A DNA stretch of 64,000 nt from a virus (IMGVR_UViG_3300031413_000570), one strand, 5' to 3'; positions 10,131 to 45,791 are shown, counted from the first letter of the stretch. Notes: generated by a model from the sequence alone, not told the origin. Numbers and translations: made by a program.

Positions 10131-10171
10131 GCCCTATTACTAACAAAGAAACAGGCAACAGAATACAAAAA

Positions 10172-10215
10172 ATTGAGGGACCTGCACTTTAGTTGCAAGT
10201 GCAGGTCCCTCAATG
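10172..10215 (-). terminator. stem-loop (TTGAGGGACCTGCACTT ... AAGTGCAGGTCCCTCAA), probable intrinsic terminator after gene 10224..11105
   Basis: 17-bp perfect stem seen in the sequence. Confidence 0.5.
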
Positions 10216-10223
10216 ATACAAAA

Positions 10224-11541: not shown

Positions 11542-12513
11542 ATGTGTTACCCAAAACCTGGTCCCCGTTGTTCAGCTCATGCTGCAGCTACTTTCGCTAA
11601 AGCTCATCAAGCAGTCCTCAGTGCCTTCATGGACAACCGTAAAGACCCAGAGCTTGAGAAGCTGATAGCGGTAAGAAAAAAAGCTGAAGCGGAGTACAAG
11701 CTGACACCAGCTTATCTAAAGTCTCTGGAAAGACAGATCAAAAAGAACCCAACGCAAGAATGGCATGCGGAAGAGTATGAAACACTTTCTCAAGAACGTT
11801 CCCGAAGATTAGCTGCTGTTGCGGATCGCAAAGTCATCACCCACAGAAAAGCGCAGAAGGCTGCTTACACTTCACCAAAGTTTTTCAAAACTGGTGACAC
11901 CCTCGAAGAGATGCATTACAAACATGCTGATTTGTTGAACAGTATGGCAGATTCCCAAAACTGGAGTGCCAAACTGGATGATACTGAAATAGCTACTCTT
12001 CGCTGGTATTCAGAAGATGGTTATGCTGACATCAACGGTCATCTTTCAGCTTCGAAGAACCCGTACGCAAAAAACGTTGCACCTGAAACGTTGGATGCAG
12101 CTGTAACCATTCTGGATGATGCTTTCGCTAAACACGAACCAGCAGAAGAAGGTGTGATGGTTTACCGCCGGCACCATCTATATGATGAAAAAGGTTACCA
12201 TTCAAGTGATGATGCTCAGAATCTTGACAAACATTTCCCTGTTGGTAGCACATACGAACCTAAGTTCTTCATGTCGACAAGTTTGAATCCTCAGGACTTA
12301 CCTTCTAAAGACAACATCAATGTTTCTCTACAGATTCTTACAAAAAGTGGTGCTCCAATCACAGCTATCTCATCGCAAGGTCCAAGAGAGTATGAGTTCA
12401 TCATTCCTCGCGGTGCAAAATTCGAAGTTGTTGCTAATGATGTGAAAGTCAAAAGGGTCAATAAAAAAGGTGAAGCAACTGAACTGACAATTGTGCAGCT
12501 GCGAGAAATTTAA
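11542..12513 (+). CDS. mono-ADP-ribosyltransferase (R-S-ExE class) with N-terminal C-x7-C-x2-H motif
   Basis: Catalytic triad elements VYRRH (Arg), FMSTSLNP (STS) and REYEFIIPRG (ExE). N-terminus MCYPKPGPRCSAHAA. Architecture similar to T4 Alt and toxin ARTs. Confidence 0.75.
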   Translation: MCYPKPGPRCSAHAAATFAKAHQAVLSAFMDNRKDPELEKLIAVRKKAEAEYKLTPAYLKSLERQIKKNPTQEWHAEEYETLSQERSRRLAAVADRKVITHRKAQKAAYTSPKFFKTGDTLEEMHYKHADLLNSMADSQNWSAKLDDTEIATLRWYSEDGYADINGHLSASKNPYAKNVAPETLDAAVTILDDAFAKHEPAEEGVMVYRRHHLYDEKGYHSSDDAQNLDKHFPVGSTYEPKFFMSTSLNPQDLPSKDNINVSLQILTKSGAPITAISSQGPREYEFIIPRGAKFEVVANDVKVKRVNKKGEATELTIVQLREI

Positions 12514-12564: not shown

Positions 12565-13470
12565 TTAGAAGTCTCCGTAGTCAACCTGGAATACAGGAAG
12601 ACCCAGCTCACGACGATAAGCGTCGACAACCTGGTTCCGGTCATCCAAAGCTAACAGGATGTTGAAACGTTCCCGAATATGGGCATCAAAAAGTTCACGC
12701 TTGATGATGTTGTCTTTACGGTAGTCGTTATGAGGTCTCATGTAGATTTCGTCCACAGGAACACCAGCTACTTCCAGAGAAAGCAACGTGTCTGCCTTGC
12801 AGACTTCATCTCGACCAGACATAACAACAACTTTGTAGCCCTGAGCATGCAGAGCTTTCACTGTTTCAACAACAGGCGGGTTAGGCTCGTCGTCAATGAC
12901 TTTGTGCCAGTCAAACGGTCCACGATGTGAACCCATCTTCATGGCCGTACCGTCAACATCCAAAAGGATAGCTTTAGGCAGAGTCTCATCAGGAACATAG
13001 ATTCCTGCTGCAGCTGCTTCGTAGTCAAGTACAGGGAACGGAGGGAACTTACCGCTCTGGATGTAACGCTTGAATGTTGTTTCAATCACCTGTGCAGGAA
13101 CTTTACGCTCACGAGCAGCGTTACGGGCAAGAGCTGTCTCAAGCTCAACAGGGAAGTCCTGATGGACGACAGGAACGTTAGCTTTCTCCGCGATAAGGAG
13201 ATACTCTTTGACGTACTTGGCTTTCAAATTCACATTGTCAACGACAACACTTTTGCGTGCAGCAAGAAGAGCGGTGATGATGGCATGCTCCACTTTGGTA
13301 ACAGCGACTTCAAGCTCCTGAGGAAGCTCGTAGGAGCTGAACTGGCTGAGACGAATGTCATCACGGTTCACACGGGCACGGTTTAACGGGTCCTGGTTCA
13401 CCCAGCGGATGGCTTCTGTAGATTTACCGGAGCCCTGTACTCCCCGGTGAATCCGCATTATCTGTGACAT
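12565..13470 (-). CDS. pnk: polynucleotide 5'-kinase / 3'-phosphatase (T4 Pnk-like)
   Basis: N-terminal P-loop kinase GVQGSGKST. C-terminal HAD phosphatase motif LLDVDGT. ATG start chosen at MSQIM, with AGGAA 5 nt upstream. The track ORF begins at a TTG at 13497. Confidence 0.8.
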   Translation of the reverse strand: MSQIMRIHRGVQGSGKSTEAIRWVNQDPLNRARVNRDDIRLSQFSSYELPQELEVAVTKVEHAIITALLAARKSVVVDNVNLKAKYVKEYLLIAEKANVPVVHQDFPVELETALARNAARERKVPAQVIETTFKRYIQSGKFPPFPVLDYEAAAAGIYVPDETLPKAILLDVDGTAMKMGSHRGPFDWHKVIDDEPNPPVVETVKALHAQGYKVVVMSGRDEVCKADTLLSLEVAGVPVDEIYMRPHNDYRKDNIIKRELFDAHIRERFNILLALDDRNQVVDAYRRELGLPVFQVDYGDF

Positions 13471-13604
13471 TTTGTTTCCTAACTTAAGATACTCCAACTT
13501 ACCATGAAATCCGGCCAGCTGTCAAATACTATGTGCATTAGCTGTTGATGATAGAATTCTTTGACCGCTCATAAAGCTGACAACGATTAAGGAACATTAG
13601 CATC

Positions 13605-19585: not shown

Positions 19586-21478
<1,893 letters not shown>

Positions 21479-21564: not shown

Positions 21565-23043
21565 TCAGCTATTACGACGTGCGGCACGCAGGCGAGGAAG
21601 TCTGCGAAGAACGAATCCGCCAATCAGCATAAGGCCACCCATGAAGGTGAGGAATACAGTGGAGCTGGAATCAGAACCAGTGTAAGCCAAAGCTCGGGTG
21701 TTGGTGTCTGAACGGTCACCACGTTCAGTTACGTTGCCCAATTCGTCATTGTCGTAACCTCCAGTGTTACCCAACTCATCGTTGTCGTAACCTCCGGTGT
21801 TGAACTCTTCCTCAGGAATCAGGGATACTCCACCTGAAGAAGGGTCACGAGGAGTTGTTTCTGGTTCAGTCTCAGGAGTGACTCCTGCATCTGGGTTTGT
21901 AGGTGTGACTGGAGCTTCAGGGTCAGTAGGGGTTGTAGGGTCCACTGGAAGGGTAGGGTCTACAGGAGTTTCTGGGTCCACTGGAGTCTCAGGGTCTACA
22001 GGGATAACAGGGTCTTCTCCAGGAACGATAACTTCATCATCCTGGTTCACAACAAGAAGGCTGGTCCAACCAATGATGTTGTTGTCTGCATCAGACACGA
22101 CGATACGATGTTCACCAGTTTGGGTGCCTGCTGGAATTGTGACATCAACGTTTCCATCAACGTCAGTCTGAACCCAGCCAGCGAGAAGCACAGGAGTGGA
22201 ATGAATCCATACTGACACCCATGTTTCAGGAGCAGCAACGCTTGCAGCAGAAACTGTTACAGTGTCACCAGGAAAAGCAACTGCAGCGTTCACAGAAATA
22301 AGGTTCTCCACATCAACAGGAAGGGCTTCATCCTGCTGCATGACAGGAGCCTCTGAAGGTGCAGGGTTTTCTGTTACTGCGTCAATAGCTACAGAGAAGT
22401 CATATACTTCACCAGCGACCAATGTGACACCACCAGCAGGTAGAGGGTTGCCGTTGAGTAGGACAACTGGGCTTAGTGTTGTGTTTTCAATGTCTGGTAA
22501 ACCAGTTACTGAGACCTGGACTGTAGAGCCTTCAGGGATGTCAATAGTTGTAGGAGGGACATCTCGGGTGAGGTAAACAACGTTATCCTGCACTTCGTCA
22601 TTCACTAAAGAAGTGTAATGAACTTCAAGTGTTAGATTTTCAGGAACAGTTGAAGTGTCACCAGCGAAAGCTAAAGCAAAGGTTGTTGCAACCAAAGCAT
22701 TTTCCTCCGCAGGGACCTCTTCAACTGGTGCTTCTTCAGTAGGAACTTCTTCAACTGGTGCTTCTTCAGTAGGAACTTCTTCTACTGGAACTTCTTCAGA
22801 TGGTACAACTATTTCAGGTTCGGTTTCCTCTGGTACTGCAACCTCAGGAACAGGTACTTCTTCTGCGGTGGGGTCAGCTACTGGAGTAACTTCCTCAGTA
22901 CCAGTTTCTACTTCCGTAGGAACATCTTGTGTTGTAGTAGGAGCTGCCTCATCTGCAAGTGCTGGGGAAGCTACAAACGCTACCGCACTCAATGAAACTG
23001 TAGCTGCTACAGCTACTCCTACAATTTTTTGACCAATTGGCAT
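21565..23043 (-). CDS. cell-wall-anchored surface protein (signal peptide, acidic Pro/Glu repeats, C-terminal LAYTG sorting motif, transmembrane helix and [11 protein letters not shown] tail)
   Basis: N-terminal signal peptide ending ASPALA|DE. C-terminal LAxTG, hydrophobic segment and basic tail together form a sortase-substrate architecture. Repeats [20 protein letters not shown] and [11 protein letters not shown]. Confidence 0.65.
22711..22800. repeat. 30-nt in-frame tandem repeat, three copies (encoding [10 protein letters not shown]) inside the surface-protein gene
   Basis: Unit aggaacttcttcaactggtgcttcttcagt repeated, read directly. Confidence 0.6.
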
Positions 23044-23549: not shown

Positions 23550-24671
23550 ATGGTACACATTTACGATATTGCTCCTGCTGAACTTTGGGCAGCTGAGTTC
23601 CAGAACAAACACATCAACCGTCAGGTTCACCCTACGCTTGACTTGGCTATCTTCGACTATTCGCAGGTATGCCAGTTCGACCGAGCCTGGAACGCTGCCA
23701 CATTAGCTTCACGAGGACTTATCGTTGACGGTTCCACTCAGGAGATTGTTTCCCGCCCTCTTGGTAAATTCTTCAACCACGGCGAACCAGATGTCCCTCA
23801 GGATGCGTTGACTGGACCTATCGTGGTCACAGACAAAGCAGATGGTTCTATGGGTGTTTCATATGTCAACCCTGAAACAGGTCGACTGAACATTTCCACA
23901 CGTGGTTCGTTCAGCTCTGAGCAGGCTCTGCATGCTACAGCTCGTTACCAGGAGCTGTACGACGGCAAATGGGAGCCAATTGCTGGTGAGACTTACATCT
24001 GGGAAATCATCTACCCTACAAACCGCATCGTTGTCAACTATGGGGATTTGGATGACCTCATCCTTATTGCCCGAGTGAACACAGCAACAGGCCGCTCTGT
24101 GCCAGCATCACAGGTTGAAGAGTGGACTTGGTTGAAGGTTGAGCAGTTCGAGTACAGCAGCCTCACTGAAGCTTTAGCGGCTCCTGGTCGTGAGAACAAA
24201 GAAGGTGTGGTTGTTCACTTCCTGGATAGTGATGTTCGTGTGAAAGTGAAGCAGGACGACTACATCCAGCTTCACCGTGTCATCACAGGTGCGTCTTCGC
24301 GTCGAATCTGGGAGTTGCTCGTAGCTGACGGTGATTTCACTTCTTGGATTGTTGGTCTCCCCGACGAGTTCGTTGAATATGTAGAAACAACTCGTGATCG
24401 ACTGATTGCAGAGCATGCCGAAGTGCGTTCAACAGTTGAAGAGACTTACAACCGTATCCTCTCTGAGCTTCCTGAAGGGTACACTCAGAAAGACTACGCT
24501 GCAGCTGTGCAGAAAGAAGACAAAAGCATTACTGGTTTGTTGTTCTCCCGTCACAGTGGAGGTCATTTTGAAGCTAAGTCTGAGAAGAAAATCTCTGACA
24601 TCATCTGGAAAATGATTCAGCCTGAGTTCGAGAAGCCTTTCTGGAACTTGAACGGAAAAACTGCTGACTAA
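23550..24671 (+). CDS. ATP-dependent RNA ligase, paralog 2
   Basis: Motif I KADGSMG. SRGLIVDGSTQEIVSRPLGKFFNHGE aligns with the ORF at 8889..10130. Further shared blocks: YIWEIIYPTNRIVVNYGD and NKEGVVVH. Confidence 0.65.
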   Translation: MVHIYDIAPAELWAAEFQNKHINRQVHPTLDLAIFDYSQVCQFDRAWNAATLASRGLIVDGSTQEIVSRPLGKFFNHGEPDVPQDALTGPIVVTDKADGSMGVSYVNPETGRLNISTRGSFSSEQALHATARYQELYDGKWEPIAGETYIWEIIYPTNRIVVNYGDLDDLILIARVNTATGRSVPASQVEEWTWLKVEQFEYSSLTEALAAPGRENKEGVVVHFLDSDVRVKVKQDDYIQLHRVITGASSRRIWELLVADGDFTSWIVGLPDEFVEYVETTRDRLIAEHAEVRSTVEETYNRILSELPEGYTQKDYAAAVQKEDKSITGLLFSRHSGGHFEAKSEKKISDIIWKMIQPEFEKPFWNLNGKTAD

Positions 24672-24721: not shown

Positions 24722-25777
24722 TTAAGGTGCAAACTGAAAAGCTGTAGTGAACTGTAGCTGGTAAAGAATTTTTCCTGTTTCTGCATCAGCAAACAACGTA
24801 GACACTTCACCGCCGTTGTACTGCGTCACTGGAATTGCGACCACATTATTCTCCGAATCATATGATAAGCGGTTACCTAACGTGTATCCAAGGGTGGACA
24901 AATCAACCAGTAAAGTAGCTCCAAGATTTGTGTCTTTGATAATGTACTCATGATATGCATCTTCTTCTGGTGAATAAGCAGTCACAGCCCACAAGATACT
25001 GGTTCTATCAATAGCTGTTGTCCCTGACGCTATCTGAGTTTTAGAATCCGCAGCTTCAGGTAAGACCAATTTAACAGTATTCAAATCGTTCAAGTTGTAC
25101 GAAATTGGAGTCGAAGCATCAGCTTCAGTTCCCCATAGGAACAATGTGTTTCCTTTGTTGTAAAAACCTCCGAGATAACCCATCTGACCTAACTGCACAA
25201 ACGGTTGCCATTGACCAGCTTCATCCACTTTCCCTGAGTAGACAGTACTGGTCAAACCAGCCTGATACACAACGTTTCCTGTTTTGGAGTTCACTTGCCA
25301 TTGTGAGGATGCTTGTACTTCTGTGGTTGTTTCCTTCTTTTCTTGAGTATCGTATGAAACGAAACGCTGGGTTGTCGTATCTGTGTCACAAGAGTTCAAA
25401 TACACAAAATACCTGTCGAATACTGAGCTGGTCTGAAGCACTGAACAGCCAGGGGTGGTGATGTCTTCAGCTTTACCTGAGTCCAAATCTACAAGCAGAA
25501 CTTTCTGTGTAGAAGTGATAAGTAGTGCATGTGAATGGGTTAGTGAGAAAGAAAGAATGGACTCTGGACCAGAGTAGGCTTCCTCACCTGGGTCAGTTCC
25601 TTTTTGATGGTAGAAAGAGGAATCGACTAAGTAGTACCCGTCAACATTGTCTACTTTTGTTTGCTGGGTGATTCCGTCTTTGACAAACAAAGCAGCGACT
25701 AAAGCCAGAACAAGTAGTAACGACACCACTATGCTGCGGTTGAGATTATGCTGCGGTTTGGTTTGTTCAGTACTCAT
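24722..25777 (-). CDS. membrane-anchored exported protein, hypothetical (N-terminal transmembrane helix, beta-rich ectodomain)
   Basis: IVVSLLLVLALVAALFV transmembrane segment, then a hydrophilic domain rich in Thr/Ser/Tyr. Overlaps the next gene by 11 nt. Confidence 0.45.
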   Translation of the reverse strand: MSTEQTKPQHNLNRSIVVSLLLVLALVAALFVKDGITQQTKVDNVDGYYLVDSSFYHQKGTDPGEEAYSGPESILSFSLTHSHALLITSTQKVLLVDLDSGKAEDITTPGCSVLQTSSVFDRYFVYLNSCDTDTTTQRFVSYDTQEKKETTTEVQASSQWQVNSKTGNVVYQAGLTSTVYSGKVDEAGQWQPFVQLGQMGYLGGFYNKGNTLFLWGTEADASTPISYNLNDLNTVKLVLPEAADSKTQIASGTTAIDRTSILWAVTAYSPEEDAYHEYIIKDTNLGATLLVDLSTLGYTLGNRLSYDSENNVVAIPVTQYNGGEVSTLFADAETGKILYQLQFTTAFQFAP

Positions 25778-26489
25778 AAGGAGCCTCTGGTTCTACAGTT
25801 TTGGTTACACTATCAGGGATGAGCTCAGCCTGGTACCCACTGTTACTTGTAGTGTCACTAAACTCTCCTTGCACTTCAACCCAATCATTTTCTTGGAAGT
25901 TCTGCTGCCAGTTCACCTGGTGTACTGGTACACCAACTGGTTGAGCGTCAACAGCACAGCAATACACAACAAATCGGGACAAGTAGAAATTATTTTCATC
26001 GATGGGAACAACAAACCCTACTAAATCAACTTCTTTTCCTGAAAATTCATACTGGATGTCAGATTCAGCAAGTAACGCCCAGTCTTTGACAGTGAAATCT
26101 TGGTAGTCTCCTTCAGGATTAGCGAAATCTTGATTCGTGGACACCACTCCGCCGTTGACGACTTTATCTGAAGCAAAGGTGGAAGATAAAGCCCCTGGAG
26201 CAACAACGAACATGCTGGAAGTAGCTACCAAAACAGTTGCCGTAATTACTAACTTCCGTTTTGAGTTTTTCTTCTCATCATGCTGATGTTCATGTACCGA
26301 AGGTTGTTTCTTAGCAAAGCTTATTGCTACCAAAGCCACACCCAAGATGACCATGATGGCGGTGAAGAGGTTGTATCGAGGATGGATGAACAATGACAGC
26401 TTACCTGTGGATATGAGCCAGAGGATGAAACTCATGGCGACTGCAAGCGTCACCCAATGTAAAGTTTTAGTTATTTTCTCAAGAGACAA
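25767..26489 (-). CDS. membrane protein, partner of the adjacent permease (resembles the TIGR03943 family)
   Basis: Three N-terminal transmembrane helices, a His-rich linker (HEHQHDEKK) and a C-terminal domain with YCCAVD. Gene-pair arrangement with a UPF0718-type permease. Confidence 0.45.
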   Translation of the reverse strand: MSLEKITKTLHWVTLAVAMSFILWLISTGKLSLFIHPRYNLFTAIMVILGVALVAISFAKKQPSVHEHQHDEKKNSKRKLVITATVLVATSSMFVVAPGALSSTFASDKVVNGGVVSTNQDFANPEGDYQDFTVKDWALLAESDIQYEFSGKEVDLVGFVVPIDENNFYLSRFVVYCCAVDAQPVGVPVHQVNWQQNFQENDWVEVQGEFSDTTSNSGYQAELIPDSVTKTVEPEAPYEY

Positions 26490-27471
26490 GGTTGACTCCT
26501 AACCCAATGCTGACGCTGGCACATACCACCAGCAGTACAATATACAGAACAGCTTTTGATGTGAACGTGGATTTCATCAATGCAATCATTTTCACATCAA
26601 CTAAAGGGCCGGCGAGAAGGAACGTGATGAGGCTTCCGTTCGTGAAAGTACTGGCAAATGATAGAGCAAAGAATGAATCCACGTTTGAACATATTGCCAC
26701 AATGATTCCAAGTAGGAGCATGACAAGAACTGACAGCACAGGGTCTTCCCCAATAGCTAACAACGTACTTCTGGGTACAATTACTTGGATGAATGCAGCA
26801 ATGCCTGCACCTACAATCAAAGCTGGGAATAGGAGAATCAACTCTGAGGCTGTTTTGTTTGCTACATTGAAGATATTTTTCTTTTCTACTGCACCTACTT
26901 CAACTCGACATGAATGTTCAAATGCAGGGGCAAGAAACTGGGTCGCATCTTGTTGCCGGGAGAAGAGCCATCCAATGACGTTGGCTATGGCCAGTCCGCC
27001 TAAAATACGACAGATGAGGATGCCTGAATCCCATCCGAAAGCTTGGTGTGTTGTGATTATGGTGACAGGGTTGACGATGGGTGCGGCGAGTAAGAAGACC
27101 ATTGCTTCTGACACTGTGAATCCTTTTAGCATTAGTCCACGGGCCATGGGAATGTTCCCACATTCACACACAGGTAAGAAGACGCCAAACAATGACAGGA
27201 AGAAGCGTTTCAGGTGAGGGTTGTTGGGAAGTATTTTTGTCAGCCAGGTGAATGAGATAAAAATCTGAACTAAGGCAGCAAGGATACTTCCCAAGATCAG
27301 GAACGGTACAGATTCAACAATCACGCTAAAACTAAGCATGAAGAAGTCGTTCAACAGCCCGGTGAAACTTTTCTTAGGCAGTAGAGCAACTGCTGCCAGT
27401 ATGAGAAGCATACCTCCAAGAAACACCCCTGATGCTTTATAGCTTTTTAGGGATGAAGATACAGTGAGCAT
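26479..27471 (-). CDS. predicted permease (UPF0718/DUF318-like, multi-pass)
   Basis: About eight hydrophobic helices with a CECGNIP motif. Overlaps the downstream gene. Confidence 0.5.
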   Translation of the reverse strand: MLTVSSSLKSYKASGVFLGGMLLILAAVALLPKKSFTGLLNDFFMLSFSVIVESVPFLILGSILAALVQIFISFTWLTKILPNNPHLKRFFLSLFGVFLPVCECGNIPMARGLMLKGFTVSEAMVFLLAAPIVNPVTIITTHQAFGWDSGILICRILGGLAIANVIGWLFSRQQDATQFLAPAFEHSCRVEVGAVEKKNIFNVANKTASELILLFPALIVGAGIAAFIQVIVPRSTLLAIGEDPVLSVLVMLLLGIIVAICSNVDSFFALSFASTFTNGSLITFLLAGPLVDVKMIALMKSTFTSKAVLYIVLLVVCASVSIGLGVNLVS

Positions 27472-28108: not shown

Positions 28109-29596
28109 GTGAACCACAAACAAACGCAACCTGCCCGATTCAGGGCTTTAGGCGTTGCACTATTAGCTACACTTGTTCTACCTTTCGCTACAGCTACATC
28201 CGCTTCAGCTGCAACCGCTCCGTCTGATGCATCCATTCTGTCTTCAATGACAACAGATGTTTACCAGTCAATCAATCCTAAAAGCCAAGCTAATCTACTC
28301 ACTGTCAACTCAAAAGAAATTGACAGTGCCAAAAACAGCTACGGTTTTACAGAGACTAAAGGAGTTGTCTTCAAAGCTAACCATGACCAAAAAACAGGGT
28401 TAGTGCCAGTTTATCGTCTGCATAAAAACGGCGATTTCATCTGGGTAGCAAAATCTTCCTCCTCCAACGAACTTGCTGTTGCCCAGAGTAAATACGGGTA
28501 CAAAGAGCAAGGAATCAATTTCTACGCTTCAACCAAAAACCTTTCCGGTAGCCAGCCAGTCTACCGTTTCCAGAAAAGTGGTAAGCATCGTTATGCAACA
28601 ACTGAAGCTGAAAGAACTGCCCTGACAGCAGCCGGCTGGGCAGCTGAAGGAATCTCCTTTTACGGAGCTAAAACCTCCCCTGTTGTTACACCACCAACAA
28701 CTCCGCCAGTAAACCCTGCTGATGCTGACGGAAAGTTCACAATGGCGGTAATCCCAGACACCCAACAAGAAGTTGGAACAGACACCAGATTTGTGAACAG
28801 GACACAATGGCTTGTTGATAACAAAAACGCTTTGGATTTGCGCTACGTCAACCACACTGGTGATGTCGTCAACTGGGATACTCCAAACCACGAACAGTAC
28901 GTTGTTGCATCGAAAGCTATGAAAGTTTTAGATGACAACAAAATCCAGAACTCTCTCACCATCGGGAACCATGATACAGCTGCTGTAGGTGTTGGTGGTT
29001 CTGCTGCTGACCCTAAAAACACTCGCACGTTAGTACGGAACACCACCACTTTCAATAGCTACTTCAGTCCTTCTCGTTACCCAGGTATTACAACCTTCGA
29101 AGCTGGAAAAGTCGACAATGCTTACCAGACTTTCAACGCTGCTGACAAAAAGTGGTTGGTATTGACTCTGGAACTCTGGCCACGCACTGAGGTTGTTGAC
29201 TGGGCAAAGACAGTTGTAGCTGCACACCCTGACTACAATGTCATTGTTTCCACCCATTCATATTTGAACGGCGACGGAAGCATTGACCAGTCAGCCAGTT
29301 ATGGAAGCAACTCAGCTCAGTACGTATACGACAATCTTGTCAAGCAGTACCCAAACATCAAAGTTGTCTTATCTGGTCATGTCGGTGAAGCTGGCTACCG
29401 AGAAGATGTGGGAGTAAACGGCAACAAGATTGTTTCCTACTTGGGAACATTCCATTCAAACACCACTAACCCTGTACGGACTTTGGAGTTCGACACAAAA
29501 ACAGGCAGTTTAACAACCCATTTCTATGGACCATCCAATGGAACAACATGGACACAGTATGACAGAACCACCACTGGAGTAGCCTTCGTAGGCTAA
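28109..29596 (+). CDS. secreted metallophosphoesterase (calcineurin-like) with N-terminal repeat domain
   Basis: Signal peptide ...ATSASA|ATAP. Two repeats of about 45 aa (PVYRLHKNGDF / PVYRFQKSGKH). Phosphoesterase motifs TIGNHDTA and VVLSGHVGEAG. Confidence 0.6.
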   Translation: MNHKQTQPARFRALGVALLATLVLPFATATSASAATAPSDASILSSMTTDVYQSINPKSQANLLTVNSKEIDSAKNSYGFTETKGVVFKANHDQKTGLVPVYRLHKNGDFIWVAKSSSSNELAVAQSKYGYKEQGINFYASTKNLSGSQPVYRFQKSGKHRYATTEAERTALTAAGWAAEGISFYGAKTSPVVTPPTTPPVNPADADGKFTMAVIPDTQQEVGTDTRFVNRTQWLVDNKNALDLRYVNHTGDVVNWDTPNHEQYVVASKAMKVLDDNKIQNSLTIGNHDTAAVGVGGSAADPKNTRTLVRNTTTFNSYFSPSRYPGITTFEAGKVDNAYQTFNAADKKWLVLTLELWPRTEVVDWAKTVVAAHPDYNVIVSTHSYLNGDGSIDQSASYGSNSAQYVYDNLVKQYPNIKVVLSGHVGEAGYREDVGVNGNKIVSYLGTFHSNTTNPVRTLEFDTKTGSLTTHFYGPSNGTTWTQYDRTTTGVAFVG

Positions 29597-38153: not shown

Positions 38154-39896
38154 TTATGAATCCTGTAATGCTGGGTTCAAAGCTCCTGGGTTCAACTGGA
38201 TAGTTGAAGTCTTACCTTCTGTTGTTGTGAACTTGACCATACCGCCTTGTTCGCTGACTGTTTTGATGTTCTCGTAAGTTGCTTCGTCAATATTACCGAA
38301 GTTACCTGAGAGGTCCCAATCGTAAATACGGAAATCGTCTTCACCTTGACAGTTAGCTACACCGTACTCACCTTGGTAGGTAGTTGGCAGCTTACCAGCC
38401 TGGAGTTCATCCAAGCAGGAGTTTGAAGTTGTTCCTGCAGCTGGTTTTGCTGCACGATAGAAGTTGGTCATTCGGTAGCTGCTTGTGACTTCAATTCCAA
38501 CAGTTGGAGCATTGGAGTTGTATGAACTCTGGGTGTAGGAATCTGTTCTGTCTTCACGAGGAATTTCGTAGTAGAACTCGCTTGGGGTGTTTGACGCCTG
38601 GGAGAAGAACGGTGTACTTGAACCGTTGAGGTACAATTCAACTGTGGTTCCGTTAGCTGAAGTCCAGAACTGTTCCATGCTTCCTGGGCTGTAGTAGTAA
38701 GCCTGTCCTGTTGGGTCACAAGCAACTTTCTTGTAAGTTCCCTCTTCTGACCAGCAACCGTCAGTACGAGCGGTAAGTGTTGGCTGTCCCATTGTTTGGA
38801 ACATTGACTCGTAAGATGTGAACATTGCAGACATGCTGGTGTTACAGTTTTGGTCAACATAGAAAGCGGTTGCAAGGGTTTCATTGGTTGTCTGAGCATC
38901 AGTGTATAAGTTGTTGTACTTGTTGCACTGACCGCCAGGCTGGTCACCGCCTGGAGGGGTGAAAGACCCTGCTACGTTGATGGTGATTGAGTCAGGACAA
39001 CCAGCTGGTAGGAAAATTACTTGCCCTCTTTCAGCGAAAGTTTGAGCTTCTTCCAGGGTAGCTCCAATGTATCCGTTAGTGGTTTGGATGCCTACTGCTG
39101 TCTGGATTCCGTCTGATGATTGAATGTATTCCCAGCTACCAGCAATCTCAATTTCTTCACTGTCTAAGTAAGCTTTTACTTGTGTTACCTGTGTGGCTGG
39201 GTCTGTAGGTGCGCAAGTTGGGTCTGGTTCAACACCATAGTTGATTTCACCATTGCGAATGTGAATAACTGCTGAGAGACCCTGTTGTTCAAAATAGGTT
39301 CCATCAAGGGAGGAGTTGTATCCAATACCACCGTTGTCATCACCGAACATGTCTTCAAGGTTCAGACACTCTGACTGGTCACCTTCTTGGTACATGCGAG
39401 GTGCGCTGATTTTGTTGTCAATCCAGAAACGGTTGCCTGTCTCTGAGGTAATGACAGCAACATAGCAGTCTTTGTTGTTTGTTCCTGTGGAAACTATAAG
39501 ACGTTCAGATTCTTGAAGCAAACCTCCATGTTCGGCTTTCAAATCGTCATAGTTACCAAAAGTCTGTTTCTTCTCTCCATCATCGCCAACGCTGAAACCA
39601 GCATATGCTGACTCTGCTGTATGTACTGAGGAGAGAGATGCTTTTGCTGCTTTGTCCTGTGCCCAAGGAATGATAGCGAATACTGTTGCAGAGATTACTC
39701 CACCGATGAGGCCGATGACGATGACACCAACCATGATGGAAGCTAAGTCAATGGCGGCTTGTGAAGAGCTAAAAGCTGCTCTTATTTTTGTGTAGTTTTG
39801 AATAGGCGGGTGCGTGCTGCCAGCAGACATACAGATTCTTCTCTCTAAGGGGGTTAGGTAGCTGAAAAAAGTATCGGTTATTAACAAGCTTTTCAC
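38154..39896 (-). CDS. large exported protein with type IV pilin-like N-terminal domain (paralog 1 of 4)
   Basis: After a leader, SSSQAAIDLASIMVGVIVIGLIGGVISATVFAIIPWAQDKAAKASLSSVHTAESAY closely matches the N-termini of the ORFs at 60000, 61407 and 62891. A large variable C-terminal domain follows. The true start is probably the internal MSAGSTH. Confidence 0.55.
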   Translation of the reverse strand: MKSLLITDTFFSYLTPLERRICMSAGSTHPPIQNYTKIRAAFSSSQAAIDLASIMVGVIVIGLIGGVISATVFAIIPWAQDKAAKASLSSVHTAESAYAGFSVGDDGEKKQTFGNYDDLKAEHGGLLQESERLIVSTGTNNKDCYVAVITSETGNRFWIDNKISAPRMYQEGDQSECLNLEDMFGDDNGGIGYNSSLDGTYFEQQGLSAVIHIRNGEINYGVEPDPTCAPTDPATQVTQVKAYLDSEEIEIAGSWEYIQSSDGIQTAVGIQTTNGYIGATLEEAQTFAERGQVIFLPAGCPDSITINVAGSFTPPGGDQPGGQCNKYNNLYTDAQTTNETLATAFYVDQNCNTSMSAMFTSYESMFQTMGQPTLTARTDGCWSEEGTYKKVACDPTGQAYYYSPGSMEQFWTSANGTTVELYLNGSSTPFFSQASNTPSEFYYEIPREDRTDSYTQSSYNSNAPTVGIEVTSSYRMTNFYRAAKPAAGTTSNSCLDELQAGKLPTTYQGEYGVANCQGEDDFRIYDWDLSGNFGNIDEATYENIKTVSEQGGMVKFTTTEGKTSTIQLNPGALNPALQDS

Positions 39897-39974: not shown

Positions 39975-40787
39975 TTATTTGGCTTGTGCAATCATTTTCA
40001 ACACTGCCGGCACTTCTTTCCACTTCTTCACACGATACTTTGAAGGGACAGCTGCGTTGTACGCATTCTCAAACGCGATAACCGTTTTACCGTTCTTCTG
40101 TAGAGTGTTAATCTGCTTGTCAGAGTCATCAATGTACACATCGATACCTGGGACTTTCTCTTTGTCCTCAGTGTGAGTGATAGAGGTGAAAGGAATGCGG
40201 TGACGACGCAACCACTGACGGGTCTCTTCATTCCATCTATTACCACGAGCTGTCACAACGCGAACTTCAACGTCACGGCTACTGACCAAAGTACGGAGAG
40301 TTTTGCTCACCCCATCAAAAGCTTTCATTTTGGAGTAGACACCATTCTCTTCCGCTGAATGGAAAGCATCCAAGAAGGAATTCACGTCAGTGAACCATCC
40401 TGAATCTACGAAAGAGTAATGAGTTGGAGGGCTGGGAAGAAGCGTCTCAGCCTGCTCAGGAGTAAGGCCCTGTGTCTTCATGACATGGTTACGAATAGAT
40501 TCCGTAAAGTCACCACTTGTGTTGTCCACATCCAACGCGAGAACCAAAGGTGTTTTGCGAAGGTTGGTTTCACGCTCAGCTTGAGCGATGAGGTTTGCCC
40601 TACGGGTTTCATATTTCGCAGCTAACGCGTCTTTGCCTTGAGCTTTGAGGTCAGCGATACCAGCTAATGAAGTGAAGTAGTTCCTTCTTGCAAGCTTGAT
40701 GCGTTCAAGATCACCAGACTTTTCTGCAGCTTCAAGTTTGATGCGAGCATGGTAGCTGCAACGAGGGTATGGTTTGCGTTTGCACAT
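39975..40787 (-). CDS. HAD-superfamily 5'(3')-nucleotidase-like protein with N-terminal C-x7-C-x2-H motif
   Basis: DxD HAD motif LALDVDNTSGDF after an N-terminal extension of about 80 aa that begins MCKRKPYPRCSYHA. Confidence 0.55.
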   Translation of the reverse strand: MCKRKPYPRCSYHARIKLEAAEKSGDLERIKLARRNYFTSLAGIADLKAQGKDALAAKYETRRANLIAQAERETNLRKTPLVLALDVDNTSGDFTESIRNHVMKTQGLTPEQAETLLPSPPTHYSFVDSGWFTDVNSFLDAFHSAEENGVYSKMKAFDGVSKTLRTLVSSRDVEVRVVTARGNRWNEETRQWLRRHRIPFTSITHTEDKEKVPGIDVYIDDSDKQINTLQKNGKTVIAFENAYNAAVPSKYRVKKWKEVPAVLKMIAQAK

Positions 40788-40840: not shown

Positions 40841-41035
40841 TCAGTCTTCGAGCATTTTTTCCAACGCAAATGACAGGAACACAGCAATTTCGTTAATATC
40901 ATCGTTCATATTGTGTGAAGTCACTGTCACTTCCACTTTACCGTCAACTTCACGGAACCCTAAAGCAACTTTCTTCATTTCGCCTTCTTTGAAAGGAGGT
41001 AGTTGCATGGGAGCAAGGTCATTCGTAGTCATGGT
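40841..41035 (-). CDS. hypothetical small protein (start uncertain)
   Basis: The track ORF 40841..41119 overlaps the upstream gene by 85 nt. Internal start MTTNDLAP chosen. Weak call. Confidence 0.3.
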   Translation of the reverse strand, partial: TMTTNDLAPMQLPPFKEGEMKKVALGFREVDGKVEVTVTSHNMNDDINEIAVFLSFALEKMLED

Positions 41036-42339
41036 TACGATATCGGCTGTAACGCCTTCAGGTTTGTTTTTCGGAAAGCAGATGGCGTGTACACAAGCAA
41101 CACAGTCAGCAGCATCCAATTACCCTCAAGCAGCAGACGGGATTCCGTAAGAGCTTGGATGAACAAGCAACCACCGAGCAGGAACAAACCTAGAGGTAAG
41201 AAGCTGGAGTTTCTTCCTGCGTGCTCCACCAAGCGCCAGGAGCTTCCTAAGATGTACAGAGTCATAGCTGCTAAAAGAATGACACCCACTACGCCCAGTT
41301 GGAACCAGACATCCAGATATGCATTATGAGCATGAGCTACAGGCACTCCACCTAATGTGAGTATTCCGTTGAAAGGCTCCTTCCAGACAGGCCAGTAACT
41401 AACCCAACCCCAACCTTCAGGCTTCTGCAAAGCAAGGTCAGCAACTCGTTTCCAGATTTCAGTGCGGTTAGTGAGGTTAGGGTCACGGTCAAAAACACCG
41501 AACAATTTGTCGTAGTTTTTCAACGCAGCAACACCAAGAACAATGCAGAGTCCAACAAAAGACCATGAGGTTATCCGTCTGAACTTTTCTGGGGTGAAAC
41601 GTATAAGCATCGCACCAACAACAATGATGGCAACAGCCAGCAAAGCCAAAGAGATGGTAGCTGAAACTGTCAGAAAATGTGTTCCTAACCCTACAGCTAT
41701 CCAGCTAAGACTCACCCATTTGTTTGTGAGCTTCTCCAACAAAGTCACCACTGAAACAACGATAAGGAGCAATGCGACAAAGCCCAACAAGTTTCTGTTG
41801 CCCATGAAACCTTGAATTGGACCACCTGTGAACAGGTTGTTCTCTGACCAGTTCAACACACCAGAATTTTTCTCAATATCAGTCAAGCCCACGAATTCCA
41901 TAAACACTGGCAGAACAGGTCTCCTGAACAAAGTGGCAACAACTGTTTCGAACATCAAACTGCCGACCACACAGATTTGTAGTCCGTAACCTAAGAGAAC
42001 TATCAGTTTTTTCCATTTGTAAGCAGAGGCAACTAAAAGTCCTATGAGGCTGGTTGCTGCCAGGATGATACTGGCTATGAATGTTTCCAAACGGTAAGTG
42101 GACCAAATCGTGGACAGAGCTGCTAAAGCCACAAAAGTACCCAACAAAAATGGGGTTCGGCGTTTACTCCAGGTACCCCAAAAAAGCCAGACAGCTACAC
42201 TGACGGTCACCAGGCTAAGAGTTCCGTAGCCGATGAGACCGATCAGGTTTCTCAGCCCTTGACCAGCGAAGAGGAGTACAAAAATCCAGACAACGAAACT
42301 GTCTTGAAATTTCTGGGAGTGTCGTACTGTTGAAATCAA
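41035..42339 (-). CDS. O-antigen ligase/polymerase-like (Wzy_C/WaaL family) integral membrane protein
   Basis: About 12 transmembrane helices. Periplasmic loop with HAHNAYLDVWFQLG is typical of the O-antigen ligase family. Confidence 0.55.
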   Translation of the reverse strand: MISTVRHSQKFQDSFVVWIFVLLFAGQGLRNLIGLIGYGTLSLVTVSVAVWLFWGTWSKRRTPFLLGTFVALAALSTIWSTYRLETFIASIILAATSLIGLLVASAYKWKKLIVLLGYGLQICVVGSLMFETVVATLFRRPVLPVFMEFVGLTDIEKNSGVLNWSENNLFTGGPIQGFMGNRNLLGFVALLLIVVSVVTLLEKLTNKWVSLSWIAVGLGTHFLTVSATISLALLAVAIIVVGAMLIRFTPEKFRRITSWSFVGLCIVLGVAALKNYDKLFGVFDRDPNLTNRTEIWKRVADLALQKPEGWGWVSYWPVWKEPFNGILTLGGVPVAHAHNAYLDVWFQLGVVGVILLAAMTLYILGSSWRLVEHAGRNSSFLPLGLFLLGGCLFIQALTESRLLLEGNWMLLTVLLVYTPSAFRKTNLKALQPIS

Positions 42340-42458
42340 TGAAAACCTTAATTTGTTGTGTTACACTGTAGCTATTCTACAGTTTTTCTGATTTAGCCCA
42401 CTTTGCAGCTGTTTCTAATATCAGCACGGCAGACATATAGAATGATCCAGTACCCAGA

Positions 42459-43073
42459 ATGGTTACTGTAATGATAGAAAGAATTTTGATGGACGACGAC
42501 ATTACCCCCTCCTCTGAGGTTGTAACTCGTTCTAAGAAAAAACGCAAAATTGGTTTCCTTGACACGATCATCTTTGGTCTGGCAGCAGGAATCATTCTGA
42601 ATCTATTCTTCGTGGACAGCTATGTTGTCCCTTCTTCCTCCATGACGAACACTTTGCAGGTCAAAGATTACATGGTGTCTGTTCCTGCATTGGACAACAG
42701 ACAAGCACCTGACCGTGGCACTGTTGTCGTTTTCAACCCTCCAGCATCTTGGGGTGAACCTGCTGGAACGGTGTTCGTGAAACGCGTAATAGCTGTTGGT
42801 GGCGATACCATCTCCTGTTGCTCAGATGATGGCAAACTTCTCCTCAATGGTGAGGAACTAAATGAGGATTACATCAAAGATGGCGTGAACGATGTCAACA
42901 AAGAATTCACCTACACTGTCCCAGAAGGGCAAGTGTTTGTCCTGGGTGACAACCGGTTGAACTCAGCTGACTCCAGGTACCACCCTAATGACCCTTTCGT
43001 GCCAGTGGAAAGCATCCTGGGTCAGCCTAAGTTCGTTATGTGGCCGTTGAATCGTATTCACGCCATCAACTGA
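42459..43073 (+). CDS. lepB: signal peptidase I (LepB/SipS type)
   Basis: Box B VPSSSMTNTL (catalytic Ser), box D VKRVIAVGGD (catalytic Lys), box E VLGDNRLNSADSRY, and an N-terminal transmembrane anchor. Confidence 0.8.
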   Translation: MVTVMIERILMDDDITPSSEVVTRSKKKRKIGFLDTIIFGLAAGIILNLFFVDSYVVPSSSMTNTLQVKDYMVSVPALDNRQAPDRGTVVVFNPPASWGEPAGTVFVKRVIAVGGDTISCCSDDGKLLLNGEELNEDYIKDGVNDVNKEFTYTVPEGQVFVLGDNRLNSADSRYHPNDPFVPVESILGQPKFVMWPLNRIHAIN

Positions 43074-45791
43074 TTACAGGCTTTTCAGGAACTGAACAAT
43101 AGGTTCAGCAACAACTCGTCCCAGTTCGACAGGAACAGCATTACCTATTTGACGGTACTGTTTCTCCAGGACTGTGTTGGTTGTTCCACGAGAGGTTGTC
43201 ACAAAATCATACCAGTCAGGGAATGTCTGGATTCGTGCAGCTTCTCTTACAGTGAATCTACGGTCTGCAGCGTCTAAGCTCCACAGGTCTTGCTCCAGCT
43301 TCTCCTGAGGCACTCCATCAGGATGCAAAGGCAGGTGTCGCCCTGTTGCTAAGATAGTCTTTGACGGAACATCCCAGTCAAGTTTGAACCTTCTGGAACG
43401 GTAACGTGAAGAGAAGTCTCCTTCATAGTGTTCATCGTTCAGGTCCCTCAAGTCGTAGAAAGCATCTCTTTGAGTTTTGTACGGAAGCAAGCCTTCACCA
43501 TGAGTGGCAGCAGGGTGCTGGTATTCAAATTCAATGTCGTTTCGCACACCAACAATAATCAGTCGCTCTCTCATCTGAGGCACACCATGCTGGATAGCTT
43601 TCATCAGCTTGTAGTAGATGGTGTAACCTGCTGCTGCAAAATCTTCAACTATCTGATTGAAGGCTTCACCTTGACCATGAGTAAGCAAGCCCTTGACGTT
43701 TTCTGCTACGAAAATTTTTGGCTGAGCGTCAACAACAGCTCGCACGAAATGCAGGTACAGGAAGTTGCGAGGGTCATCCAGCATACGAAGACCTGCTGCT
43801 GAGAATCCAGGGCAGTTGTGAACTACGAATCCATCTGCTACGAATGATTCATCCTCGGCTACAGTAATATCGTAAACAGGAAGTACTCCCATTTCGTTTC
43901 TCACCTGTAAACGCTCCACAGGAACCCATACGTAACTGTCATCATGATGAGCTACGGTAGTGTCAGTTACAGTCACAATCCAGGAACTGTATTTTGGTGA
44001 AGACACAATAACATCCTGTGCAGGGTTCAAGCTACGAAGGATTCGAGCCACGCCAACAGCTAAGTTCTTGCTGTGTACTTCCTGGTCAGAGTTGTGGAAT
44101 AGGAAACCTTCAAGGAAAGCTTTCTGCCAAGCTCGCGGTTTCTGGTGAACTTCTTCAGGAATGACTTTGTTCCATTTTGTGGTTCCGAACAGTTTCATCA
44201 TCTTGTTCAGCTGTTCACTGTGCACAATGACGTTTTTACCTTCTTTTGAACAGACAGCATCAATTTCAGCCAACAATGCCAGGAACTCTTCATCATTGTA
44301 AGGAGTAAGGTAGCTTGGCTTGTGTTCATCGTTCAAAGTTTTTGTACCGCACTGAGCGAAAACGCCGGCTAAGTAAGCAAACTTGGCTTCTTTTTCGGTT
44401 ACTTCATCTGTACTAAATGTGCTGATTGGGTGAGACACAAACCAACCTGGCTGAATGTTCTCAGCGTGGACCCATTTGGGTTCAGAGTCAACAGTTTCTT
44501 TCACCCAGTAAGGATGGTTTACAGTTGAGACAAGAGGAAGAGAACCGTAAGCGTGCAAGGTAGCTGATTTGTTGACGTTACGGGTCATGGTGTCGGTTAC
44601 TTCACGGTAGCGACCTTCATGGGTGAGAACAAAATCACCTTTCTCGATGTCTTCAATGTTTTTGTAGCCTGTTTTTGTTGCTACGCCTGTTCCTTTAGGG
44701 AAGCAGGGGAATCCACCTAACAGAAGGTCTGCGTCAGGGAAGCTGTTGATTTTTTTGATGTCTCGTTCGTCAACGAACGTTTCAGGGAAGTTGAGACGGT
44801 AAGAAGCTACTGCATCTTTGAAGTTGTCATTCACGTAGACCGTGTGAATGAGGTTATCTTTACGGAGCTCGTCAAACACTCTTTTGTCTTTGTAAGCTGC
44901 GTCCACTTTCTCTTTACCGTGAACTGCTTCAAGTCCAGCTAACTCGAAACCTAAATCTAATCCACCTGCACCTGCGAACAGGGACAGCACTTTGTACTGA
45001 CCATCAGGTAAGTTCACTTCTGGGTAGACATCCTTTTTATCTGACACTGAAGGTGAATGTTCTGCGATTTTGGCTTTCAGAACGCGGGAAGCTTTTGCAG
45101 GAAGTTCCTGGAGTCTTTCAACTTTTCTCAGGATGTTCTCCACAATTTCGCGTTCGTTGAACTGCACGCCAATCATCATGTCAAATTTGGTGTAGTCATC
45201 CAGTGCAGTTTCTGAGACATGGTTCAACTGCTCTTCAGTGTATTTGATACCATCACGCTTGTTTCGACGCTCTGCGAGAACTTCTTCTGGAATGTCAAGA
45301 CGTAGAGCAACACCTTGATTGTCAACCACCGTGTCCATTTCATTAGGGAAACGTGCATCTGAAACGAAAATGAAGTCTGTTTCTGACTTGTTGACGAAGT
45401 TCAAGAACAAGTCAGTCCAGTACTCAGGACGCTGCTTTCTGCGAATCTCTGTACCAAGGTACTGAAGAGATTCACGGATTTTGACTGTTCGTGAGTAACC
45501 GTTGAGAGTTTCATCTGCAAGCACTTCTGTTCTCAGATTAGTAGCAATCAGGAGAGCATCGTCGTAGTTGATGTCCAGATTACGAGCGATGGAGAAAGAA
45601 AGAGTCAGTTCATCCTGTTCAGGGAAAGCTCGAATCATAGAGATGATTTCGTTGAGTTCCTGCTTCAGGGGTGCAGCGAAGGCTGTGTAGTCGATGGTAA
45701 AACCAAGACGTTTCAGTTCGTTTACAAGCTTGTCAGTCAGGTAATCTTTACCTGACGCAATTTTTCCTGATACGCCGATGAGGGTGGCCAT
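43074..45791 (-). CDS. fusion of a dNMP-kinase-like domain with a DNA (cytosine-5)-methyltransferase interrupted by a LAGLIDADG intein
   Basis: N-terminal GVSGKIASGKD P-loop resembles T4 gp1 dNMP kinase. MTase motifs: I LFAGAGG, IV GGFP[intein]CPGFSAAG, VI ENV, VIII QMRERL, X GNAV. One continuous 905-aa ORF. Confidence 0.75.
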   Translation of the reverse strand: MATLIGVSGKIASGKDYLTDKLVNELKRLGFTIDYTAFAAPLKQELNEIISMIRAFPEQDELTLSFSIARNLDINYDDALLIATNLRTEVLADETLNGYSRTVKIRESLQYLGTEIRRKQRPEYWTDLFLNFVNKSETDFIFVSDARFPNEMDTVVDNQGVALRLDIPEEVLAERRNKRDGIKYTEEQLNHVSETALDDYTKFDMMIGVQFNEREIVENILRKVERLQELPAKASRVLKAKIAEHSPSVSDKKDVYPEVNLPDGQYKVLSLFAGAGGLDLGFELAGLEAVHGKEKVDAAYKDKRVFDELRKDNLIHTVYVNDNFKDAVASYRLNFPETFVDERDIKKINSFPDADLLLGGFPCFPKGTGVATKTGYKNIEDIEKGDFVLTHEGRYREVTDTMTRNVNKSATLHAYGSLPLVSTVNHPYWVKETVDSEPKWVHAENIQPGWFVSHPISTFSTDEVTEKEAKFAYLAGVFAQCGTKTLNDEHKPSYLTPYNDEEFLALLAEIDAVCSKEGKNVIVHSEQLNKMMKLFGTTKWNKVIPEEVHQKPRAWQKAFLEGFLFHNSDQEVHSKNLAVGVARILRSLNPAQDVIVSSPKYSSWIVTVTDTTVAHHDDSYVWVPVERLQVRNEMGVLPVYDITVAEDESFVADGFVVHNCPGFSAAGLRMLDDPRNFLYLHFVRAVVDAQPKIFVAENVKGLLTHGQGEAFNQIVEDFAAAGYTIYYKLMKAIQHGVPQMRERLIIVGVRNDIEFEYQHPAATHGEGLLPYKTQRDAFYDLRDLNDEHYEGDFSSRYRSRRFKLDWDVPSKTILATGRHLPLHPDGVPQEKLEQDLWSLDAADRRFTVREAARIQTFPDWYDFVTTSRGTTNTVLEKQYRQIGNAVPVELGRVVAEPIVQFLKSL
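43815..44705 (-). other. intein (297 aa, with LAGLIDADG homing endonuclease) inserted at the catalytic Cys of the MTase PC motif
   Basis: Begins CFPKGTG. Block B TVNHPYW. LAGLIDADG motifs YLAGVFAQCG and FLEGFLFHNSD. Ends VVHN followed by +1 Cys. Excision restores GGFPCPGFSAAG. Confidence 0.7.

Follow-up and report, generated by a model that had tools for sequence, protein, structure and literature searches.

A conserved type I signal peptidase gene on giant, probably viral elements associated with actinobacteria

Phages are generally assumed to rely on the LepB of their hosts for the processing of exported proteins. The locus described here raises the question of why a gene for a type I signal peptidase (SPase I, here SPase for short) should reside on a stretch of DNA classified as viral, and which proteins the enzyme would mature. 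The gene lies in a sequence of 64,000 nucleotides (IMGVR_UViG_3300031413_000570, the whole of which is referred to below as the window), for which a first-pass annotation had proposed that a phage brings its own leader peptidase to process an unusually rich set of exported proteins, or to alter the biogenesis of the host envelope. Our analysis shows that the product of this locus is a type I signal peptidase (S26A, P-type) and that its gene is a core gene of the lineage that carries it, the visible substrates being variable cargo; the proteins named as its substrates are not what the enzyme is conserved for.

The assignment to the family is firm. A Peptidase_S26 (PF10502) match spans the whole catalytic domain with 126.4 bits against a cutoff of 22.9 (E 1.4e-36), and the sigpep_I_bact equivalog model of NCBIfam (TIGR02227) scores 119.4 bits against a cutoff of 47. 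The SSSM serine, the KRVIAVGGD lysine and the third motif on which the first-pass annotation had based its bona fide SPase I are all present: Ser61 is carried by box B (PSSSMTNTL), Lys108 is a general base of the bacterial type and not the histidine of the enzymes of the endoplasmic reticulum, and box E reads GDNRLNSADSRY. In an alignment of 25 sequences, among them 17 members of the clade and 7 homologues at a greater distance (six apparently actinobacterial), the two catalytic residues and positions G163, D164, R166, S169, D171, S172 and R173 of box E were invariant, and the invariance of Ser61, Lys108 and box E was repeated in a clade alignment of 28 sequences. HMMER alignment to solved enzymes places Ser61 and Lys108 on the catalytic serine and lysine of E. 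coli LepB and of the B. anthracis SPase, and box E on the box E of both enzymes (GDNRDNSADSRY in E. coli LepB). Models of related but distinct peptidases did not recognise the protein: those for conjugative TraF remained far below cutoff (TIGR02771, 21.6 bits against 100.25; NF010459, 17.1 bits against 156), as did the one for the nickel superoxide dismutase maturation protease.

The real start of the coding sequence is probably Met11 of the longest open reading frame (ORF), because orthologues start at the residue aligned with it, several independent gene calls within the same 90% cluster predict a protein of 194 amino acids (aa), and a GAAAGAA motif conserved in the window and in the relatives L003 and L007 is found 4-6 nucleotides upstream of its ATG. 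A CATATAG sequence, also conserved upstream of the gene, was considered as a promoter motif of the lineage and discarded, since it was not enriched (2 occurrences found, 3.2 expected); terminator-like matches numbered four, mostly within coding sequence. The basic stretch RSKKKRK directly precedes the anchor helix, so that by the positive-inside rule the N-terminus is predicted to be cytoplasmic and the catalytic domain to face the outside. The AlphaFold2 model (predicted local distance difference test 79.4, predicted template modelling score 0.71) places a beta-rich domain after a single N-terminal helix (residues 33-51), and Foldseek matches it best to E. coli LepB, S. aureus SpsB and S. pyogenes SipA (entries 1t7d, 4wvg and, for SipA, 4n31; E 5e-8 to 1.5e-7, probability 1.00). 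The predicted fold thus matches the beta-sheet fold of SPase I. On each S26A feature checked (models, dyad, boxes, anchor and fold) the protein agrees with the family, and it would be expected to cleave at Ala-X-Ala sites.

This enzyme has a long history in its lineage. Orthologues form about 30 clusters at 49-63% identity, and the best cellular homologue reaches 43%. In a neighbour-joining analysis of 121 sequences the SPase clade was monophyletic in 100 of 100 bootstraps, the mean distance being 0.61 inside the clade against 1.29 to the cellular enzymes of the set. Between orthologues synonymous sites are saturated (proportions of synonymous and non-synonymous differences 0.70-0.85 and 0.08-0.37, respectively), and dN/dS lies between 0.04 and 0.20 wherever dS is estimable. 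The guanine plus cytosine (GC) content of the gene, 0.48 overall and 0.52 at third codon positions, is within about one standard deviation of the genes of the window (0.457 +/- 0.03 and 0.44 +/- 0.07) and roughly 20 points under that of the cellular Micrococcales locus (0.64-0.67). In addition, a near-invariant CC motif is common to the clade and to the actinobacterial SPases of the alignment and is missing from the Halanaerobacter enzyme. Because of this monophyly, purifying selection, ameliorated composition and shared CC motif, the gene was, as far as its sequences can tell, acquired once and long ago from an actinobacterium and has been passed on vertically, under constraint, ever since. 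A metagenome scan whose patterns were the universal catalytic boxes gave nothing beyond ordinary cellular SPases (at most 43% identity), and one of GTDB gave only cellular SPases at 33-36%. The first-pass annotation had also considered a degraded host gene with a disrupted dyad, which is at odds with the invariant dyad and box E, the low dN/dS and the fully supported clade. Likewise, recent capture or decay of a host gene, or chimeric assembly, has nothing in its favour beyond the cellular ancestry of the enzyme and can practically be discarded, given that the locus was assembled in many independent samples and that the clade is deep and monophyletic, under purifying selection and ameliorated in GC.

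The position of the gene is conserved too. Down to 49% identity, the SPase slot between NT5C and the deoxynucleoside monophosphate (dNMP) kinase is fixed in 6 of 6 relatives examined, and in all of them the SPase is the sole plus-strand gene of a block with the order WGR-PARP, (variable genes), NT5C, a small ORF, Wzy_C where present, SPase, dNMP kinase and a YqaJ/RNase T exonuclease, followed by a conserved 307-aa protein, MazG and the small subunit of ribonucleotide reductase (RNR). The O-antigen-ligase-like neighbour reported in the first-pass annotation does adjoin the SPase, as a divergently transcribed Wzy_C gene that is conserved end to end in relatives (full-length identity of 62% to L003 and 51% to L014). 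Its product is polytopic, with at least nine hydrophobic segments, and has neither a solved-structure relative by sequence nor an NCBIfam match. Besides the window, L014 and the 830-880 kb sister genomes have the gene; the distant relatives L012 and L013, by contrast, retain the SPase without a Wzy_C gene beside it, so that the two genes do pair, though not obligatorily. Between PARP and NT5C the gene content varies, and in the genomes nearest the window this stretch holds exported or surface cargo: a pilin-like ORF of 580 aa in the window, a GDSL lipase with a signal peptide in L003-L006, and a DUF285 pilin-like protein plus the lipase in L007. In the sister genomes this lipase lies 2.5 kb from the SPase. 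On the other side of the SPase, the dNMP kinase of the window is fused, in a protein of 905 aa, to a C5 cytosine methylase that a Hint/intein domain interrupts, the relatives having either a 553-aa protein or a kinase of ~227 aa alone; the stop codons of the fusion and of the SPase abut with zero intergenic bases.

The elements carrying this block are very large. The exact SPase protein and relatives of 99% identity occur on contigs of 776,559, 782,330 and 788,683 bp, and orthologues are present on further contigs, two of 828,331 and 858,429 bp and others of 878,479-883,042 bp that came out of independent assemblies of at least four samples. Such reproducible sizes in independent assemblies suggest that the ~780-880 kb contigs are complete replicons. 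The DNA read in this work amounts to ~95 kb (the window and flanking loci), about 10% of the genome. The content of the window is largely of phage type. It includes an RNA-repair set of two T4-type (Rnl1-family) RNA ligases and a PNKP whose best matches, at 44-47% identity, are in 130-kb Streptomyces phages; a WGR-PARP with 39-41% identity, over 96-99% of its length, to proteins of the jumbo phages Xoo-sp13 and XacN1 and of Stenotrophomonas phages; a set for nicotinamide adenine dinucleotide (NAD+) metabolism with two NAD synthases, an NMNAT-like cytidylyltransferase, the WGR-PARP and at least four ADP-ribosyltransferase (ART) genes; and RNase H, NucS, a DnaB-like helicase, MazG, NT5C, dCMP deaminases, RNR, the intein-split kinase-methylase protein described above and a RecE-like exonuclease carrying a fused RNase T domain. 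The PHROG matches of window proteins include the RecE-like exonuclease, the DnaB-like helicase and phrog_5429. Marks of a cellular chromosome were not seen, with no tRNA and no Rfam match in the 64-kb window, a full-length DnaK without a GrpE or DnaJ partner among the neighbours scanned, unlike the cellular locus, and no close relative among the 185,579 species genomes of GTDB; NCBI nr likewise contained no member of the clade. From this gene content we consider it quite likely that the carrier is a phage, the main alternative being a giant non-viral element. INPHARED contains no close relative of the lineage, a megablast search with 7 kb around the SPase was unmatched, and we found no report of phages of 780-883 kb in the literature. 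The lineage of 0.78-0.88 Mb elements is apparently undescribed, the published record for a phage genome being 735 kb.

As for the host, the similarity of the element DnaK to that of Microbacteriaceae, the NucS protein and the LAYTG sorting motif of a surface protein all fit an actinobacterium, and point to an association of these elements with Micrococcales, probably Microbacteriaceae-like, hosts. The element DnaK is ~80% identical in the sister genomes and 99-100% in the closest relatives of the window. An NCBI DnaK, P0135, was also considered as a host clue and set aside, as it proved to be an ordinary DnaK of high-GC Micrococcales whose score was inflated by an internal duplication.

Which exported proteins are then at hand for the enzyme? 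About 20 of the ~70 ORFs of the window have hydrophobic segments, and a simple heuristic on the n-, h- and c-regions called three cleavable Sec-type signal peptides, a number that does not establish the unusually rich exported set announced in the first-pass annotation. The individual proteins on its list fared differently. The LAxTG-anchored surface protein is real, with a signal peptide ending in ALA and, at its C-terminus, LAYTG followed by a hydrophobic segment and a tail, i.e. a cell-wall sorting signal. It belongs to no Pfam, PHROG or NCBIfam family, and its one relative in a collection of 5.8 billion proteins (88% identity) comes from a short contig of the same species; since DnaK is 99-100% identical in the closest relatives, this suggests that the LAYTG protein evolves fast, as a rapidly diversifying surface protein. 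Only one of the two metallophosphoesterases presented as secreted carries a signal peptide, together with a DUF5648 domain, the other having none. The secreted protein of unassigned function does carry a probable signal peptide. The cleavage sites, which the first-pass annotation had proposed to check for atypical ones, are predicted to be canonical (ALA and ASA). The pilin-like proteins are four in the window rather than three, with a fifth just beyond its end, and share the N-terminus [KR][GA]/AIDLASIMVGVIxIGLIGGVIAATVFAVIPW, with a hydrophobic segment of 26 residues; the leader reads K-A/AIDLAS in the window and R-G/AIDLAS in L003. All four show weak and consistent similarity to positions 5-50 of GspG/PilA models, and their C-terminal domains differ (He_PIG Ig, DUF285/PARCEL repeats, choice-of-anchor J).

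The explanation that we favour, and regard as probable, is that the gene encodes an active accessory SPase I which keeps signal-peptide processing going for a changing exported cargo. It draws on family membership, motifs and fold, on monophyly, purifying selection and synteny, and on window proteins that have canonical cleavage sites, whereas activity, topology, substrates, the viral nature of the carrier and the timing of expression are what we infer. According to this proposal the minimal enzyme of ~190 aa, catalytically competent by its motifs and holding its Ser61/Lys108 domain outside the cytoplasm by one anchor, would insert into the host membrane during residence or infection and cleave Ala-X-Ala-type signal peptides off Sec-exported preproteins. 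Processing would thereby be secured or boosted for the exported proteins of the element itself, a set that seems to turn over between genomes and in which a sortase-anchored surface protein, a secreted phosphoesterase, a GDSL lipase and others would take their places, and it would become independent of the supply of host LepB. The benefit might be greatest in a long infection during which host gene expression possibly falls, for which the element-borne DnaK offers a parallel. It is tempting to go further and to regard the ~780-880 kb contigs as the complete genomes of the largest bacteriophages so far, exceeding 735 kb and infecting Microbacteriaceae-like hosts, with the SPase as a core gene of viruses whose own route of export maturation would serve, together with DnaK, Wzy_C, the pilin-like and the sortase-anchored proteins, to rebuild the cell surface in a long infection; in this complete form, however, the scenario is speculative and we would rather doubt it.

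Several observations weigh against our proposal, some of them concerning the carrier and others the substrates. With regard to the former, the window proteins were searched against Pfam, PHROGs and NCBIfam, and the flanking loci through precomputed Pfam tables, and the ~95 kb read yielded no gene for a capsid, portal, terminase or tail; an extension of 10 kb past the right end of the window added SNF2, a GHKL ATPase and another pilin-like gene and no virion hallmark, and the proteins of the left end led at most to a contig of 938 bp. Moreover, IMG/VR scans with the SPase and two conserved lineage-specific proteins retrieved no member of the lineage, and the 880 kb contig of the Joint Genome Institute is absent from that database. 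The description of the gene as phage-encoded therefore stands on phage-type gene content and lacks a virion gene in the window. These gaps would suit a giant plasmid-like or extrachromosomal actinobacterial element on which the SPase is an accessory paralogue adding secretion capacity, as in the case of SipP, and so would the membrane and surface cargo (an ABC transporter, an ArsP permease, SPFH, Wzy_C, pilin-like and sortase-anchored proteins) and the conjugative-looking context of at least one SPase-like gene labelled viral in IMG/VR. With about a tenth of the genome read, however, the absence of virion genes is weak evidence, and such an element would hardly account for a content typical of lytic jumbo phages (Rnl1 with Pnk, PARP, ARTs, NAD synthesis, dNMP kinase, MazG, NT5C, RNR and the RecE-like exonuclease), for the best matches of several such genes lying in phages, for a GC content ~20 points under that of typical Micrococcales or for the lack of Par, Rep and conjugation genes in the DNA read. 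Hence we rate the plasmid-like element as rather unlikely, though as the strongest of the competing explanations.

With regard to the substrates, no sigma-70-like promoter was recognised in a scan upstream of the SPase, the gene is surrounded by genes of nucleotide metabolism and not by a secretion or envelope module, and the clearest substrates are orphan or variable: the LAYTG protein has no relative in the sister genomes, and in the 880 kb sister genome neither this protein nor the block with the permease and the secreted phosphoesterase is found at the site in synteny, which is the reason for setting a core SPase apart from a variable cargo. The leaders of the pilin-like proteins look prepilin-type, so that these proteins are more likely to be prepilin-peptidase substrates or signal-anchored than substrates of SPase I. 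Thus, the idea of an own leader peptidase for the listed proteins holds in that an intact enzyme is carried, and weakens in that its presumed substrates are orphan, variable, probably of prepilin type or without a signal peptide. No conserved substrate was identified in the DNA read; any such protein, if one exists, would be encoded outside it. One way to reconcile a core enzyme with a varying exported cargo is to place its targets in the host, where it might cleave proteins with cryptic signal peptides such as the housekeeping class E sortase, and so strip or remodel the surface, e.g. for superinfection exclusion or release. The release of sortase SrtA by Actinomyces oris LepB2 is a precedent (PMC9282373), and the host uses LAxTG sorting. 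We nonetheless consider this improbable, since the element encodes a LAYTG substrate of its own that needs a working sortase. Marginally less probable still is a role in lysis or virion morphogenesis through a conserved Sec-exported preprotein (an endolysin, a holin-like or a structural one) from elsewhere in the genome. A core gene would imply a core substrate, and Sec-exported, SPase-processed endolysins exist in phages of Gram-positive bacteria, such as Lys44 of the oenophage fOg44, but the DNA read contains no lysis or structural gene and the SPase is embedded among nucleotide-metabolism genes of early type. Finally, the presence of SipA (4n31) among the best structural matches and of several pilin-like paralogues in the window would fit a non-catalytic assembly factor of the SipA/LepA type, or a pilin-maturation peptidase of the TraF type; the invariant Ser/Lys dyad and box E, unlike SipA/LepA, the TraF scores of 17-22 bits against cutoffs of 100-156 and the apparently prepilin-type leaders make this very hard to sustain. 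An accessory enzyme for a changing exported cargo is thus the explanation that we retain.

The features on which this analysis is built are collected in Table 1. Two further observations concern other genes of the window. The block missing from the 880 kb sister genome comprises an ArsP-type permease (PF03773), a TIGR03943/DUF1980 permease subunit and a 351-aa N-terminally anchored protein. Besides, an N-terminal Cys-rich module of the form C-x(4-9)-C-x(1-3)-H, e.g. MCYPKPGPRCSAHAA, heads unrelated enzymes; it was counted in 5 of 73 ORFs, compared with 0 of 330 internal windows. Relatives carry similar motifs, and the module may be a zinc knuckle or a tag for targeting or packaging.

Table 1. 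Positions of the SPase gene, its parts and other features in the window and, where a locus is named, in related DNA
Feature	Position	Strand	Basis or remark
Type I signal peptidase gene, longest ORF	42459..43073	+	204 aa; PF10502 E 1.4e-36; TIGR02227 119.4 bits
Probable true coding sequence, from Met11 of the longest ORF	42489..43073	+	194 aa; orthologue starts; conserved GAAAGAA; 194-aa calls
Single N-terminal transmembrane anchor, residues 31-51	42549..42611	+	hydropathy scan; AlphaFold2 helix 33-51
Ser61 codon (nucleophile, box B PSSSM)	42639..42641	+	invariant in both alignments
Lys108 codon (general base, box D VKRVIAVGGD)	42780..42782	+	invariant in both alignments
Box E GDNRLNSADSRY	42945..42980	+	7 invariant positions; consensus GDNRxxSxDSR
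Divergent intergenic region, Wzy_C/SPase	42340..42488	.	partly conserved with L003 and L007
Wzy_C (O-antigen ligase/polymerase family) membrane protein	41035..42339	-	434 aa, TTG start; PF04932 63 bits
dNMP kinase and C5 cytosine methylase fusion	43074-45791	-	905 aa
Candidate substrate, LAYTG surface protein	21565..23043	-	signal peptide ...SPALA/DEAA (cut after ALA)
Candidate substrate, secreted DUF5648 and metallophosphoesterase protein	28109..29596	+	signal peptide ...TSASA/ATAP (cut after ASA)
Candidate substrate, 229-aa protein, function not assigned by family	58386..59075	+	probable signal peptide; no family match
Second metallophosphoesterase	59117..59938		no signal peptide
Pilin-like family, window	38154-39896, 60000-61277, 61407-62795, 62891-63985	-	
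Pilin-like family, relatives	L011 8790-9905; L003 18722-20215; L007 4920-6221		
Hsp70/DnaK, full length	19586-21445	-	73-76% identical to Microbacteriaceae DnaK
RNA-repair set (two RNA ligases, PNKP)	8889-10130(-), 12565-13497(-), 23550-24671(+)		
NAD+ synthesis/consumption set	873-1766(-), 4906-6429(-), 7156-8121(-), 11542-12513(+), 32536-37889(-)		
Permease block	24722-27471	-	
Cys-rich module carriers: three ADP-ribosyltransferases, NT5C, 170-aa protein	11542-12513(+), 32990-33502(-), 34389-35399(-), 35420-36460(-), 39975-40787(-)		
Distant IMG/VR SPase-like genes	L111/L112 9890-10450; L114 9761-10447; L101 around 10001-10552		

The maintenance of an SPase by purifying selection throughout a deep lineage of giant phage-like elements would show that the processing of signal peptides can be limiting for them, or worth controlling, and the secretory pathway would join the host functions that very large viruses duplicate. 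We found no report of a Sec-pathway signal peptidase or SPase I as a phage gene, and PHROGs has no proper family for it. SPase-like genes occur in 11 of the 50,697 records of INPHARED, mostly as fragments, and at 18 loci among the 2.9 million contigs of IMG/VR (two search patterns), all of them distant. Those of IMG/VR that lie on contigs of 135-319 kb, with the Ser/Lys motifs, were examined as possible phage precedents and not accepted as such: the copy of L111/L112 has an antigen I/II adhesin, a CHAP/lysozyme protein and AAA ATPases as neighbours, and resembles a conjugative element of Gram-positive bacteria rather than a phage, and L114 is ambiguous. More striking than the enzyme is its carrier, a lineage missing from each collection searched, whether of phages, viral contigs or species genomes or nr, and one whose members, if they are phages, exceed the 735 kb record. 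The protein itself, a minimal SPase I of 190 aa, has a serine at the position that aligns with the arylomycin-resistance position of E. coli LepB, where a proline is linked to resistance, and may be a compact enzyme for study.

Compared with known systems, the SPase has in common with the S26A enzymes (E. coli LepB, B. subtilis SipS and SipT, S. aureus SpsB) the family, the Ser/Lys dyad, boxes B-E and the fold, and its single N-terminal anchor is typical of those of Gram-positive bacteria. It differs from cellular enzymes in an identity of at most 43% and in its location on a giant phage-like element instead of a chromosome; in addition, the clade lacks the loop of ~26 residues and the C-terminal tail of several of the cellular actinobacterial enzymes aligned, and box B of the nearest subclade reads SMTNTL instead of SM-x-PTL. 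The fold is also that of S. pyogenes SipA/LepA, a pilus assembly protein without the catalytic residues kept here, and of the conjugative TraF peptidases, whose models do not recognise the SPase. As an SPase I residing on a mobile replicon as an extra copy, the closest likeness is SipP, reportedly a functional enzyme encoded by plasmids pTA1015 and pTA1040 of Bacillus subtilis (natto); SipP, however, belongs to small plasmids of Firmicutes and has close paralogues in the host Sip proteins, whereas the present gene forms a deep clade at the core of 0.8 Mb elements. In A. oris, sortase SrtA is cut at an AXA site and set free by LepB2 unless SafA protects it, and the authors suggest that the outcome may depend on the stoichiometry among peptidase, substrate and antagonist (PMC9282373). 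That system likewise involves a second actinobacterial signal peptidase in sortase-dependent secretion, and LAxTG-type sorting occurs here too, but neither a SafA-like nor a sortase gene was seen in the window. At a more general level, two reports describe huge phages with host-like auxiliary genes for chaperones, translation and NAD+ metabolism (PMC7162821, PMC11662467), and the NAD+ systems reported there for jumbo phages (PMC11662467) are echoed by the NAD+ set of the window. The SPase would be one more such copy of a host housekeeping gene, found here beside DnaK, NAD synthases, PARP and ARTs.

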